Of a stretch of 64,000 nt of DNA, positions 11,018-28,635 are shown piece by piece; positions within the stretch are counted from its first letter, which is position 1; each line of letters opens with the position of its first letter. A program made the position numbers and the translations under genes. The notes beneath the pieces are model-generated. The model did no database searches and was not told where the DNA came from. It saw only the letters and a program-made list of their open reading frames with translations. Source of the stretch: Octopus vulgaris. Its lineage: Eukaryota. Location: NCBI GenBank assembly GCA_951406725.2, contig OX597819.1, positions 36,642,001-36,706,000 on the forward strand, in the 5' to 3' direction.

Positions 11018-11680
11018 ATAAAGAGTAAAATTAATCAATTAATAATTAATAATTTTACCAAGTACTTCGGTATGTTAAAAGAACCATTATTGGTAAACTT
11101 ATACAAAAATTCTATAATCATGAACATAATTATAATTAGGGTTCAGCAAAATTTGCTTCACCACATACCGAAATTTAGAAATAGCAGTTAAAATACTATT
11201 CTACTACCATAAGATATCTCCCAGACAGCAATTCGCTAAAACTCACGCAGTTAAAGAGAAAATATAACGAATCCACCCGGCTTTGATTAACTGTATACGC
11301 GTTTCGGGGTTAAAGAGATGTAAAATCATATTTCTACTCACTTTTTCCCTTCATCAGTACAGTATTTCAAATTTTAAAATTGAGAGTACTGATAATTAAC
11401 ATACGTACTCGACCAAGCACTATTCGATAGCGATGGTAGTAGAAATATGATTTTACACCTTTTTACATCTCTTTAACCCCGAAACGCGTATACAGTAAAT
11501 CAAAGCCGGGTGGATACGTTATTTTTTTCTCTTTACCAGCGTAAGTTGTAGAGTATTGCTGTCTGGGAGATATCTTATAGTAGTAGAATAGTATTTTAAC
11601 TGTCATTTCTAAATTTCGGTATGTGGTGAAGCAATTTTTGCTGAGCCCTAATTATAATTATGCTCATAATTATAGAATTT
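11018..11680 (-). mobile_element. PLE-derived fold-back insert between (TG)n and (TA)n
   Basis: Inverted arms 11107-11338 / 11438-11680; hammerhead on minus. Confidence 0.8.
11290..11363 (-). ncRNA. Minimal type-I hammerhead ribozyme
   Basis: ACTGTA-CTGATGA-A-GGG..CCC-GAAA-CGCG-TA-TACAGT: stem I 6 bp, intact core, palindromic stem III ACGCGT, GUA triplet. Confidence 0.85.
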
Positions 11681-12629
11681 ATATATATATATATATATAT
11701 ATATATATATATATATATATATATATGTACTCAAATGATAATACGACTCAGTGCTTTAAAAAATCCCATAATCTTTGTTACTGGTCTAAATTTATTCTTT
11801 TCAGACAATCACAACAATCGTTAGATTCTTACACCCCACACACGTATATGTATTTTAGTTGTGAGTAGTGCAATATTTAGTTCTTCACACAACTACTCTA
11901 TAACCCAGTTTTGATATTCATTTATTTATTTATATTTTGAAATATAAAACAAATAGCATTTATTTCATGCGAGAAATGCTAAAACTACTTGGGTCTCTTA
12001 AGTAGAAGGCTAGAAAAAGGACGGGAGTCGCTTCTTGACTACGGAACTCTCTCTATTCTAGTCAAATAGAAACAACACGTAAATATTCTGGAAATACCAA
12101 TTCAGCAGCCATCTTTTGAAAATAGATATTGAGAGAAATATTTGTATCGTTGCTATTATGTTAAACTGTCGTACGTCCAAATTTGGCCAAAAGTGTTTTT
12201 TCAGTATTTATTATTGCTTCCAATAGCCGGTTCTTTCGATCAAACTATCGTATCTCCAGCTGTTTCAGATGCCAAGATATAAAAAATTGTCAAAGTGTAG
12301 TACAACAGATTTGCTATGGAATGGTGAAACTATTTTTTCGTTTTCTGAAAAAACAACGTTTTGAACTTACGACACTTTTGCATAATACATGATCTATATT
12401 TAGTCTTGCTGTGAAAATAGTTCCACGAGAGCCTTTTTCATTGTTTTGCGAAAATGGTCCAGCGAGGGCCTTTTTCATATTTTGATAGAGGATTGAAGAG
12501 GGTGGTTGCTTTATTTCGTAACATATCAACATTTGCTCACCTCAACCCAATCTATCGAAAATACCGTCGTGAAGCCGCCTAATTCCAGAGCAAAACTGAA
12601 TGCGAGTACACAAACACACCCACCCATAT

Positions 12630-12967
12630 TCTTTTAGTTCTTTCAGACATTTGACTGCGGCCTTGATGGAGCACCACCTTTAGTCGAACAAATCAACCCC
12701 AGGACTTATTCTTTGTAAGCCTAGTACTTATTCTAACGGTCTCTTTAGCCGAACCACACGAAAGTCGGTTGTCAAGTGAGGTGGGGAGACAAACACAGAC
12801 ACAAATATATACCTATATATATATATATATATATATATATATATACGACGGGCTTCTTTCAGTTTCCGTCTACTCACAAGGCTTGCACAAGGTTCCACGC
12901 AGTGGGATTGAACCCGGAACCATGTGGTTGGGAAGCAAGCTTCTTAACACACAGACACGCCTGCGCA
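12630..12967 (-). mobile_element. Family B SINE
   Basis: Reverse-complement match to the 16763 copy. Confidence 0.85.
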
Positions 12968-13472
12968 TACACACACACACACACACACACACACACACAC
13001 ACACACACACACATATATATATATATATATATCAAACCAGAGTCGTTAACCTTGTATTTCTGTGTATCATTGTGGCTGGTACAGTTTCGTTTACATTTCT
13101 TATACATAACCTGCCGTTACTTTATTTGACTGTGATTATTTAATTGTAGTTCTGTTACATCCACCAAGAAACTAGCTTGCTTATGGCGATAGAGATAACC
13201 TCAGTACTTTGTTTGGTATTCATGCTATCGATCTTTGAGGTGGTGCCAAAGGAAACTCGACCAGACGTAAATGAAGATAATATGGGACGGAATGATATAA
13301 TACAGTATCTGCTCTCTCTTTCTAATTTACGCTCTGCATACATGGGCACTTACGTACGCACACGCATATATGTAACAAAGTTATTTTATTCCACACGGGT
13401 AGAAATATAGGAAAAATAAAAGTTGAAAATGCACTAAGAATAGTTAAAATAAATTTTATTATTATATTTAAA

Positions 13473-13513
13473 GATTTAACCGGTTTCACAGTTTACACGG
13501 ATCTTCAAAAATT
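13473..13513 (-). ncRNA. Degenerate hammerhead
   Basis: ATTT-TTGAAGA-TCCGTGTAAACTGT-GAAA-CCGG-TT-AAAT; C3 mutated, stem II weak. Confidence 0.5.
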
Positions 13514-13768
13514 TCAAATAGTAAGACCTGGCATATGTCGCAGCTGTTTTGCTTCTGACTAGTGTTTGAAGGTTGCCTTATTTTGATAGGGAGTTCATGG
13601 CTCAAATTATATATGTTTTGAATAGGGTTTGATTTCGTAGAGGATAGTCATATGATTGGTCTAAGAAATTTTTGCAGGCTCCCCGCTACGTCAGTGTGTT
13701 AGTATCAAGTGACAATGTTTAGCGTCATCAATTAAGGCTGACATGGTTGACTGAACAAGTCGAGTGGT

Positions 13769-13964
13769 ATTACATAGGTCAAACAGAGCTTACTCTAAGA
13801 AATAGACTGACCATTCACCGACAACAAATACGAGACCGCAGTACTAGGCATATTCCACTGAGTGGACACATAGACATGTTCAAAAAATAAATCCCCAAAT
13901 TCCAGATCTTCCCACTCTAACTACGTTCAATGAATACTACAGATTAAGCGCGGATTAACAAAGA
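13769..13964 (+). pseudogene. Penelope-like GIY-YIG endonuclease fragment (inverted copy)
   Basis: YIGQTELTLRNRLTIHRQQIRDRSTRHIPLSGHID..FQIFP; inverted repeat of 14310-14507. Confidence 0.85.
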
Positions 13965-25995: not shown

Positions 25996-27208
25996 AATAA
26001 TATATTCTCGTATATTTCATCTGTCTTCCATTTGTTATATATATATATATATGCATTATATATATATATGCATTATATATATATATATATATATATATAT
26101 ATATATACACACACACATATATATATATAGACACACACACATATATATATATATAAATATATATGCATACACATATATATATATATATATGTATGCATAA
26201 ATAACATATGTATCTATGTAATATATATGCATATATATATATATCTACAAAACTTTCTATCTATCTCCTGTCTGATTATATATATATATATATAAATATG
26301 TGTGTGCTTGTGTGCAGTGCTTCTGTGTGCATGTGTGTGGGTGGGCATTGGTGTACGATGATATTTATACAATAAATTCCACAAATTACTGATTGATACG
26401 CCATAATCTCTAATGGACTGAGAGGTAGTCATCACAGTACTTACCATAATCATTGTTTGTCATACATGTCTGAAATCTGAAGTGAGGGTAGCCGATATTA
26501 CCATACCCAGCACATAACTGTATCGATCCCTAAAAGACAAAAGGCAAAAAGTTGACTTCGGCAGGAATTGAACTTACAGAGAGAGAGTGAGAGAGAGAGA
26601 GAGAGAGAGAGAGAGAGTGAGAGAGAGTGAAAGAGAGAGAGAGAAACACACACATAAACACAGAAACACAAAGAAACACATACACACATAGAAACACACA
26701 CACAAAGAAAACAGAAACAAATGTGCTATATATATATTTTTTTCCTTGTGATATCATGATTCACCTAGTATGCCGCGCTTGCCATAACCGCAACGTTTAT
26801 AGGTAACATGTGTGTATGTGTGTTTAGGATCCTACAGGTCCTAGCACCAAACTTCCCCATTGAAAGCCATATCTAAGCTCAAAGGTGACACCATTGTATA
26901 GTATCCAAGGTCGCCATTGTTTAGTATCTAAGGTCCCAATATAAGGATAAAATCAATATAAGAATTTATCAAGTAGCCAGCGTGCAAAACCAGTTTAGGA
27001 AGTAGTTTGAATTTAGAGTCCCATTACAGCGTGAGGCGTTTACTTATAGTAATATCCCTTAATATAATATAATATAATGTATATATGTGTGTGTGTATGT
27101 GTGTACGTATATGTATATGTATATATGTATATGTATATATATATGCAATTATGTATATATATATGCAATTATGTATATATATATATATATATATATATAT
27201 ATGCATAT

Positions 27209-27526
27209 GTGGAGGCGCATTGGCCTAGTGGTTAGTGCAGCGGACTCGCGGTCGTAGGATCGCGGTTTCGATTCCCAGACCGGGCGTTGTGAGTGTATAT
27301 TGAGCGAAAACACCTAAAAAAGTTCCACGAGGCTCCGGCAGGGGCCGGTGGCGATCCCTGCTGTACGCTTTCGCCACAACTTTCTCTCACTCTTTCTTCT
27401 GTTGGCCTGCTCACTTAGCCAGCGGGGTGGCGTCATTTGAAGGCTAAAACAATGCGAAGTGCATTGTGACCAGCGATGTGTAACAACATCTGATAGCCTG
27501 CTCGGTCACGTGATCACGTGACGTGA
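27209..27526 (+). mobile_element. Family A SINE, full length, alternative 3' tail
   Basis: GTGGAGGCGCATTGGCCTAGTGGTTAG head; tail ends CACGTGATCACGTGA. Confidence 0.9.
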
Positions 27527-27888
27527 TTAATATACATATACATGTATATATATATATGTGTGTGTGTGTGTGTGTGTGTATAGGAATGTATATACAAGTA
27601 TACATAGTTCTAAAGCCGTTATAAAGTTCAACAATGCAGGTCAATGTTTGTACATTTACCTGATATTTCAATATTTCCGGCTTAGCCCCCCCCCTTCCCC
27701 TGTTCAGGTCATCTTCGGAGAAATGATTGGATTCTTAAACCTGAAATATTGAAGCACCAGCTAAAATTATAAAACATCGACTAGTATTATTCATTTTTAT
27801 AACCTGTACAGTTAATAATCATACACACACACACACACACACACACACACACACACACATATATATATATATATATATATATATATAT

Positions 27889-28340
27889 ATAGAATGGTTG
27901 TATACTGTCAATCTAACACGAACGTGACAGTAGTGGGGTACACCACCGCTGTATAGCCCTAGGAAGCATCGAACGCCTTCTGATGGCTTTGACACATTTT
28001 CCCCTGTGTCCTTATATACATTTACGAAGAGGAGACAAACACCCCCGGCCGCCGAAGCTGCATCTAGGGACACGTGTTTCAGAATCATTAAGGACAATGA
28101 TCCTGAAACACGTGTCCCTAGATGCAGCTTCGGCGGCCGGGGGTGTTTGTCTCCCCTTCGTAAATGTATATAAGGACACAGGGAAAAATGTGTCAAAGCC
28201 ATCAGGAGGCGTTCGATGCTTCCTAGGGCTATACAGTGGTGGTGTACCCCCTACTGTCACGTTCGTGTTAGATTGACAGTATACAACCATTCTATCGCCC
28301 CACCACCGTACACGTCTCTACGAGAGATTTAGAAATTCAT
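27889..28340 (+). mobile_element. Palindromic retrozyme/pLTR-like insert in (TA)n
   Basis: ~200-bp near-perfect arms around a 6-nt loop (28090-28095); homologous to 48406-48773; 3' half-hammerhead GAAA-CACGTG-TC. Confidence 0.85.
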
Positions 28341-28406
28341 ATATATATATATATATATATATATTATATTTTGTATTTCTTATATATATATATATATATA
28401 TATATT

Positions 28407-28635
28407 ATAGTTATCGCCAAGTTAACATGGCAGTCCAGAAAAATAGGACGAATACTGCCGTTGATTAGCTCCAAGAGGCCATCACCTCTAGCTAGCTATG
28501 TGACACACACAACTGTGGGGGAGCTAATCAACGGCAGCATTCGTCCTATTTTTCTGAACTGCCATGATAGCTTGGCGATAACTATTAATATCAAGTACCG
28601 CTACCGTAGTCTCCTTTAGAGAGAATTAGAAATAA
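28407..28635. mobile_element. Small fold-back of a related family
   Basis: Arms 28407-28472 / 28520-28585; 3' end ACCGTAGTCTCCTTTAGAGAGAATTAGAAAT resembles 28305-28337. Confidence 0.7.

Follow-up and report, generated by a model that had tools for sequence, protein, structure and literature searches.

Fold-back inserts with type-I hammerhead motifs in (TA)n microsatellites of Octopus vulgaris: probable insertion products of Penelope-like elements

We analyzed a 64,000-nucleotide (nt) window of the Octopus vulgaris genome (assembly GCA_951406725.2, contig OX597819.1, positions 36,642,001 to 36,706,000; coordinates below refer to this whole stretch), which contains a dense field of inverted-repeat inserts, or fold-backs, between 11.0 and 28.7 kb. 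The inserts lie in (TA)n microsatellites, most of them carry complete or partial type-I hammerhead ribozyme motifs, and one encodes fragments of a GIY-YIG endonuclease, features that point to Penelope-like elements (PLEs). The window was masked for simple repeats and compared with itself by BLAST over all 64 kb, and the inserts were named I1 to I8 from left to right (Table 1).

Fold-back inserts and their end points

The self-comparison recovered all eight inverted repeats that an earlier, sequence-only reading of this DNA had listed, with coordinates off by a few bases at most. The arms are 66-315 nt long and are identical at 89.3-100% of ungapped columns, the spacers measure 3-345 nt, and the combined arm bases amount to 2,789, i.e. 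16% of the 17.6-kb field. At least five families are represented (I1, I3, I4/I6, I5 and I7/I8), with no cross-match between them at E 1e-5. Beyond the field, the local inverted matches comprise three old ones (68-70% identity) and one at 80% identity with a 1.7-kb gap. The chance that eight random points on 64 kb span no more than 17.6 kb is about 6e-4; however, (TA)n runs of at least four units are likewise crowded in the insert field (84 of the 117 in the window), so that clustering of the inserts is inseparable from clustering of their targets.

Table 1. Coordinates of the fold-back inserts, hammerhead motifs and related elements
Feature	Span	Strand	Arms or cores	Arm identity	Tail and remarks
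I1 fold-back, head-to-head	11018..11679		arms 11108-11338, 11438-11679	93.1%	90-nt tail on left arm (11018-11107), ending at (TG)n; right arm flush with (TA)n
I1 full hammerhead	11290..11363	-	core 11357-		type-I minimal, palindromic stem III
I1 right arm, 3' half of hammerhead only	11438-11496	+
PLE-like 3' end neighbouring I2	13390..13768	-			decayed hammerhead at ~13470-13515
I2, tail-to-tail pair of GIY-YIG coding fragments	13769..14513		arms 13768-13971 +, 14514-14273 -	93.9%	spacer 345 nt; right end at (TA)n
Single non-inverted PLE-like 3' end	14728..14930	-	core 14909		U3-A8 core-variant hammerhead; ends at (TA)n
I3 fold-back	16136..16686		arms 16249-16369, 16562-16682	89.3%	110-nt tail on left arm; (TA)n at both ends; loop 192 nt
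I3 full hammerhead	16407-16480	-	core 16473-		wholly inside the 192-nt loop
I4 palindrome	23280..23507		68 bp (68/68), 3-nt spacer	100%	perfect; 89-nt tail on right arm
I5 fold-back	23632..24423		arms 23716-24017, 24109-24423	97.3%	83-nt tail on left arm
I5 full hammerhead	23844-23901	-	core 23896-
I5 full hammerhead	24218-24275	+	core 24223+
I6 fold-back	25040..25680		arms 25121-25320, 25481-25680	96.0%	85-nt tail on left arm
I6 full hammerhead	25228-25288	-	core 25282-
I6 full hammerhead	25513-25573	+	core 25519+
I6 spacer, inverted copy of right flank	25332..25468	-			(TA)n plus 25737-25851; 94% over 117 nt
I7 fold-back	27892..28338		arms 27892-28089, 28096-28292; 6-nt spacer	97.5%	46-nt tail on right arm
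I8 fold-back	28407..28647		arms 28407-28472, 28520-28585	93.9%	63-nt tail on right arm, aligning with the I7-family tail; no hammerhead seen
Broken reverse transcriptase-like reading	28903..29406	-
I7-family older copy, non-inverted partial tandem	48393..48800	-			decayed full hammerhead 48569-48614

Seven of the eight inserts are arranged head-to-head, i.e. the 3' ends of both arms in the RNA sense point outward, and I2 has the opposite arrangement. Orientation was set by the hammerhead in I1, I3, I5, I6 and I7, by homology to I6 in I4, and by the tail in I8. The sequence-only reading had placed the 3' ends outward in the hammerhead-bearing inserts; this holds for I1, I3, I5, I6 and I7 (as well as for I4 and I8) and fails for the tail-to-tail I2.

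All seven head-to-head inserts are asymmetric: one arm ends flush at (TA)n, whereas the other extends further by a tail that runs to a microsatellite. A (TA)n run of at least four units is found no more than 5 nt away from 14 of the 16 outer ends; for comparison, 6.1% of non-TA positions have such a run within 10 nt. The ends of the long arms are partly defined by the TA run, and those of the short arms by arm-to-arm alignment; hence the short arms provide a clean test, and all seven of their ends are flush, which bears out the association with (TA)n described earlier. The tail lengths (46, 63, 83-90 and 110 nt) fall near steps of ~21-22 nt, which may be chance given only six families. An end motif common to the long tails was sought and failed on alignment.

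The end points are fixed within families. One arm of each head-to-head insert ends at a site, here termed site 1, and the other at site 2, located 46-110 nt further on. The two insertions I4 and I6 belong to one family and have both end points in common; in three consistently differing columns, both arms of each insert carry the state of their own insert. I4 is devoid of a hammerhead, its arms beginning ~45 nt past the cleavage site. The older, non-inverted copy of the I7 family at 48.4 kb has its short end and its tail end in common with I7; it has a 14-bp target-site duplication, and its site is not (TA)n. Calculated from the coordinates, the distance downstream from the hammerhead cleavage site is ~110-190 nt to the short end and ~190-280 nt to the long end, while the 5' ends of the inserts range from ~45 nt downstream of that site to more than 160 nt upstream. 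Thus, the ribozyme sets neither end of the insert.

Two spacers contain copies of neighboring sequence. The I6 spacer carries an inverted copy of the right flank, and its divergence from the flank is similar to that between the arms (94% vs 96% identity). At the start of the I5 spacer, ~20 nt of the insert's own tail/TA junction are repeated in inverted orientation.

Hammerhead motifs and endonuclease fragments

A descriptor scan identified six complete type-I hammerhead motifs in the window, none of them outside the inserts, compared with a mean of 0.1 in 20 shuffles; a stricter first scan, which demanded the 10.1-11.1 pair, gave only two. Stem III is a palindrome in I1 and I6 and nearly one in I5; stems I and II vary in sequence from family to family, with pairing kept in every case. 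Further motifs were read directly from the sequence. Both arms of I7 start within stem II and possess only the 3' half of the motif, and the PLE-like 3' end next to I2 carries a decayed hammerhead, in which C3 of the core is changed and stem II is broken, with the same layout as in two metagenome loci (L002 and L004). The latter motif was missed by both scans and lies outside the I2 arms. The sequence-only reading had placed full hammerheads in or beside five inserts, of which four stand (I1, I3, I5 and I6), whereas the fifth is this decayed motif beside I2 that belongs to the neighboring element. It had also noted a half hammerhead in a sixth insert; half motifs lie in both arms of I7 and in the right arm of I1. 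Another candidate, a decayed hammerhead in the I2 spacer, was recovered neither by the scans nor by folding.

The scan for the U3-A8 core variant, which is present in the single non-inverted 3' end, has a null mean of 0.2 and is weak evidence alone; a piece related to this element occurs at 15715-15763. Rfam reported no hammerhead at gathering thresholds, nor among the 150 listed of 189 matches at E<=10; the below-threshold matches among these 150 are generic hairpins and microsatellites. Monomer folds of seven hammerhead candidates gave z-scores from -2.3 to +1.2, one of them below -2; such folds are uninformative for dimer-type ribozymes, and one of the windows folded was missing a stem. The exact 20-nt I5 motif had no match in the metagenome contigs.

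Several eroded elements of similar appearance were observed. An insert of ~100 nt between two TA runs (14599-14701) includes an eroded hammerhead-like hairpin and has a 12-nt word in common with the I1 spacer. The flank captured by I6 (25737-26036) is bounded by TA runs, carries a hammerhead-like remnant near 25950-25990 and is probably an older PLE end. The inverted pair with 80% identity and a 1.7-kb gap (49971-50059 / 51797-51881) is old, starts from a motif resembling the 3' half of a hammerhead, and represents an eroded larger fold-back outside the field.

I2 is the only insert that holds coding sequence, and the endonuclease profile has no match in the other seven. Both of its arms encode the C-terminus of a GIY-YIG endonuclease up to the stop codon; they start with the YIG motif outermost and read inward. 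The presence of a PLE GIY-YIG fragment in the field, noted earlier, is thereby confirmed. Seven database relatives of this endonuclease were found at 60-65% identity, including proteins that combine a reverse transcriptase (RT) with a C-terminal GIY-YIG domain and a CX2-5CxxC linker, and the I2 fragments begin just after the linker position. This linker marks both Neptune and Nematis elements (PMC8557442). We consider the I2 arms to be probable Neptune-like PLE endonuclease fragments. Naiad elements, which have an N-terminal endonuclease and no canonical hammerhead, were rejected as a source, as the inserts carry hammerheads and the I2 endonuclease runs to the stop in the manner of C-terminal ones.

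Five metagenome loci encode relatives of the endonuclease. In three of them, the endonuclease stop is followed by 101-255 non-coding nt and then by a type-I hammerhead, and two of these three reach a (TA)5-6 run ~100 nt beyond the hammerhead. The I2 arms start within a few bases of one point, as head-to-head arms do, even though they are tail-to-tail, and I2 could possibly be a later rearrangement of a normal fold-back. Metagenome locus L004 also carries a tail-to-tail pair of related ends.

The sequence-only reading had further reported a PLE RT fragment in this region. Database comparisons lent no support to the broken RT-like reading at 28.9-29.4 kb: 0 of 230 candidates, no Pfam match, and no match to the Neptune-like protein or profile. 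Its putative resemblance to the RT motifs of PLEs (Naiad-like) was confirmed by none of these four tests.

Origin of the inserts and the proposed insertion mechanism

We propose, with a probability of roughly 75%, that the seven head-to-head fold-backs are insertion products of several endonuclease-positive (EN+) PLE families. Cleavage of both strands within a (TA)n run by the element's enzyme would leave two broken ends, each of which would receive a copy of the RNA's 3' end region. One broken end would be primed at site 1 and the other at site 2, matching two RT start sites, and the two 5'-truncated cDNAs would then be joined head to head by repair. Joining may sometimes add a templated inverted copy of the flank, as at I6 and perhaps at I5. 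Each insertion would split a TA run and thus supply fresh targets, which may lead to a local cluster. The hammerhead would be a passenger of the copied pseudo-long terminal repeat (pseudo-LTR). The PLE origin and (TA)n targeting suggested by the sequence-only reading are both supported by the one-sided tails in all seven inserts, the (TA)n ends, the type-I hammerheads and the published insertion unit.

This unit was described by Craig et al. 2021 as an inverted 5'-truncated copy with a tail of 30-40 bp, often at one end only; a (TA)n bias was reported for Neptune and Naiad elements (PMC8557442). According to Arkhipova et al. 2013, the head-to-head arrangement is the commonest one for Penelope and is found with target-site duplications of 8-10 bp (PMC3846280). 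Minimal hammerhead pairs on opposite strands, 100-700 bp apart, were described by Cervera and De la Pena 2014, together with the U3-A8 variant and weak, dimer-dependent cleavage of PLE hammerheads (PMC4209133). Finally, Frangieh et al. 2024 demonstrated in vitro that purified Poseidon protein cuts AT-rich DNA on both strands and extends each of them; the lizard (Anolis) Poseidon element PAc has two internal RT start sites on the RNA, the interval between them corresponds to the tail, and the template is uncleaved RNA (PMC11167929).

The inserts resemble canonical EN+ PLE insertions (Penelope/Poseidon, Neptune and Nematis; PMC8557442, PMC3846280) in the inverted 5'-truncated copy, the one-sided tail, the hammerhead near the 3' end, the (TA)n bias and a target-site duplication hidden in the microsatellite. 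They differ in tail length (46-110 nt vs the published 30-40 bp, which is a typical value and not a strict criterion), in the absence of an open reading frame between the arms, in the tail-to-tail I2 and in the inverted flank copy at the I6 pivot. No PLE tail above 40 bp was found in the available portions of the published descriptions. With Poseidon PAc (PMC11167929) the inserts have in common two family-fixed, hammerhead-independent 3' end points, an AT-rich target and little homology at the start sites; unlike in PAc, four families would have their start sites two to three times as far apart, and the sole coding fragment here is Neptune-like. The hammerhead motifs match metazoan PLE type-I hammerheads (PMC4209133) in the short stem I, palindromic stem III, opposite-strand pairs 100-700 bp apart and U3-A8 variant. 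In contrast to the latter, several have long loop II inserts and lack the G10.1-C11.1 pair. In a search of mostly open-access literature, which did not cover Repbase, no report of cephalopod PLE fold-backs or hammerheads was found. The inserts are further examples of known PLE insertion biology, unusual in their long tails, in the captured flank of I6 and in the tail-to-tail order of I2.

The sequence-only reading had explained the fold-backs by the self-complementarity of (TA)n, which would allow both nicked strands to prime. Two-ended priming is retained, as it has an in vitro precedent (PMC11167929), whereas self-complementarity as the cause is not. The TA microhomology at the short-arm end is 1, 0, 5, 1, 5, 3 and 1 nt, and it reaches at least 3 nt in only two of six families, which does not clearly exceed the background of 12.5%. 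Moreover, self-complementarity is not needed, because published fold-backs carry ordinary 8-10-bp duplications (PMC3846280).

Several observations weigh against an origin by two-ended priming of EN+ PLEs. The seven head-to-head inserts are free of coding sequence, so that they can be tied to a given autonomous PLE by architecture and hammerhead type only. At 63-110 nt, six of the seven tails clearly exceed the 30-40 bp on record, and I2 falls outside the scheme. The short spacers of I4 (3 nt) and I7 (6 nt) resemble snap-back products. In addition, the in vitro work used a Poseidon element and not Neptune (PMC11167929).

As an addition to the proposed PLE insertion, PLE enzymes may, in at least some of the families, copy tandem or circular RNA of short, non-autonomous, retrozyme-like units, a reading we consider less likely than not. 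Like animal non-LTR retrozymes (PMC7229834; bioRxiv 10.64898/2026.07.22.740005), the inserts are short and non-coding and carry type-I hammerheads, and in the I7 family the unit could measure ~350 nt. Retrozyme monomers measure ~300-390 nt (PMC7229834), and retrozymes have been proposed as PLE derivatives (bioRxiv 10.64898/2026.07.22.740005). The 48.4-kb copy contains the tail end, ~95 non-coding nt and the hammerhead, which corresponds to a permuted unit of ~350 nt within one target-site duplication, and in I5 a copy of the tail end lies ~180 nt upstream of its hammerhead core. However, the I5 piece includes TA bases and is equally readable as a templated junction copy, and repeated internal initiation in an autonomous 5' pseudo-LTR could yield the same short tandems as in the 48.4-kb copy. 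Unlike retrozymes, the inserts are inverted and not tandem, and no tandem of two complete hammerhead units occurs in the window. Hints of a short unit are limited to the 48.4-kb copy and, ambiguously, I5. The related loci have 101-255 non-coding nt between the end of the endonuclease and the hammerhead, and the non-coding 3' regions of autonomous relatives match most of the present pieces in length; thus, autonomous elements that were truncated at the 5' side can leave short non-coding ends of this kind, and the earlier claim that the families are non-autonomous is not supported as stated.

It is unlikely that the second arm arose by snap-back self-priming, with the antisense template or the first cDNA being copied in place of priming at a second nicked strand, although a PLE origin would be retained. 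Arkhipova et al. 2013 favored self-priming for head-to-head Penelope structures, which have palindromes at the junction (PMC3846280), and the near-perfect turnarounds of I4 (68 of 68 positions identical) and I7 would be expected from it. However, nothing would make a snap-back copy end before the tail at a position fixed within the family, and site 1 also serves as 3' end in the 48.4-kb copy, which is not inverted. Furthermore, the arms of I1, I3, I5 and I6 are parted by an unpaired spacer of 91-192 nt. The inverted flank copy in I6, being about as diverged as the arms, fits the proposed priming with both ends open at once.

Inverted arms with TA flanks would also be accounted for by DNA transposons with a TA duplication, either miniature inverted-repeat transposable elements (MITEs) or fold-back elements, and mariner-type remnants do occur elsewhere in the window, but this origin is highly improbable and was rejected: tails are one-sided in all seven inserts and symmetric terminal inverted repeats are not seen, hammerheads are present, inserts of one family are of unequal depth (I4 vs I6), and one family member (the 48.4-kb copy) is not inverted. 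Equally improbable is an assembly or read-chimera artefact beside microsatellites, for which speak the perfect palindrome I4 and the trouble that fold-back structures are said to cause in short-read assemblies (PMC8557442), since seven of the eight arm pairs diverge by 2.5-11%, some with indels of 7-20 nt, and family-specific end points recur at separate loci.

Surrounding elements and possible consequences at the RNA level

Other repeats in the window include four copies (886-1302, 3541-3768, 6882-7289 and 53187-53654) of a ~400-460-nt MITE-like element with 30-nt terminal inverted repeats, one of which lies between 39-nt direct repeats. A short interspersed element (SINE)-like family, which we take to be of the octopus type, is present in many copies (7376-8762, 17613-17828, 21981-22210, 33949-34308, 38262-38487 and 59918-60093). 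A broken mariner-type transposase (Pfam Transposase_1) is located at 33004-33877, and a long interspersed element (LINE)-like RT fragment at 56624-57073. No relatives were found for two exon-like open stretches, 17947-18084 (-) and 8839-9123 (+). In a search for a host gene, 36 open stretches, selected visually and for the most part among the 140 best-ranked of 442, yielded only one match, a LINE-like RVT_1.

If transcribed, the inserts would form duplexes with predicted energies of -100 to -502 kcal/mol. In such structures the I5 and I6 hammerheads would be buried in the duplex, and the I3 motif would lie in the loop. The arms show no excess of substitutions of the kind expected from editing by ADAR (16 A/G vs 19 C/T of 66), which is a weak test, as most differences would have arisen after insertion. 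A search of sequencing runs with 23560-24430 listed 20 entries containing this stretch or a portion of it, from nine studies and four organism labels, two of them with at least half of its words, and no RNA data set was among the entries listed. Porath et al. 2017 reported that Penelope is heavily edited in lizard and that the potential for double-stranded RNA (dsRNA) is exceptionally high in octopus and frog; in the portions of that paper available, a palindromic repeat is offered as an explanation for frog only (PMC5625713). Bonar et al. 2026 counted 30 Penelope families with recent activity in Octopus vulgaris; hammerheads are unmentioned in the available main text (PMC13282606).

The field is an unusually clear local display of known PLE biology and helps to annotate the ends of several families. 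Tails of two to three times the published length bear on the choice of two RT start sites. If the proposed mechanism is true, the inverted flank copy in I6 would record in the genome that priming took place at both broken ends simultaneously. If the locus is transcribed, its self-contained hairpins would be a candidate repeat class feeding octopus hyper-editing, and it can be speculated, as a doubtful extension, that long-tailed PLE families with start sites 83-110 nt apart insert as hairpins in (TA)n with such frequency that they are a main source of the near-perfect dsRNA for it.

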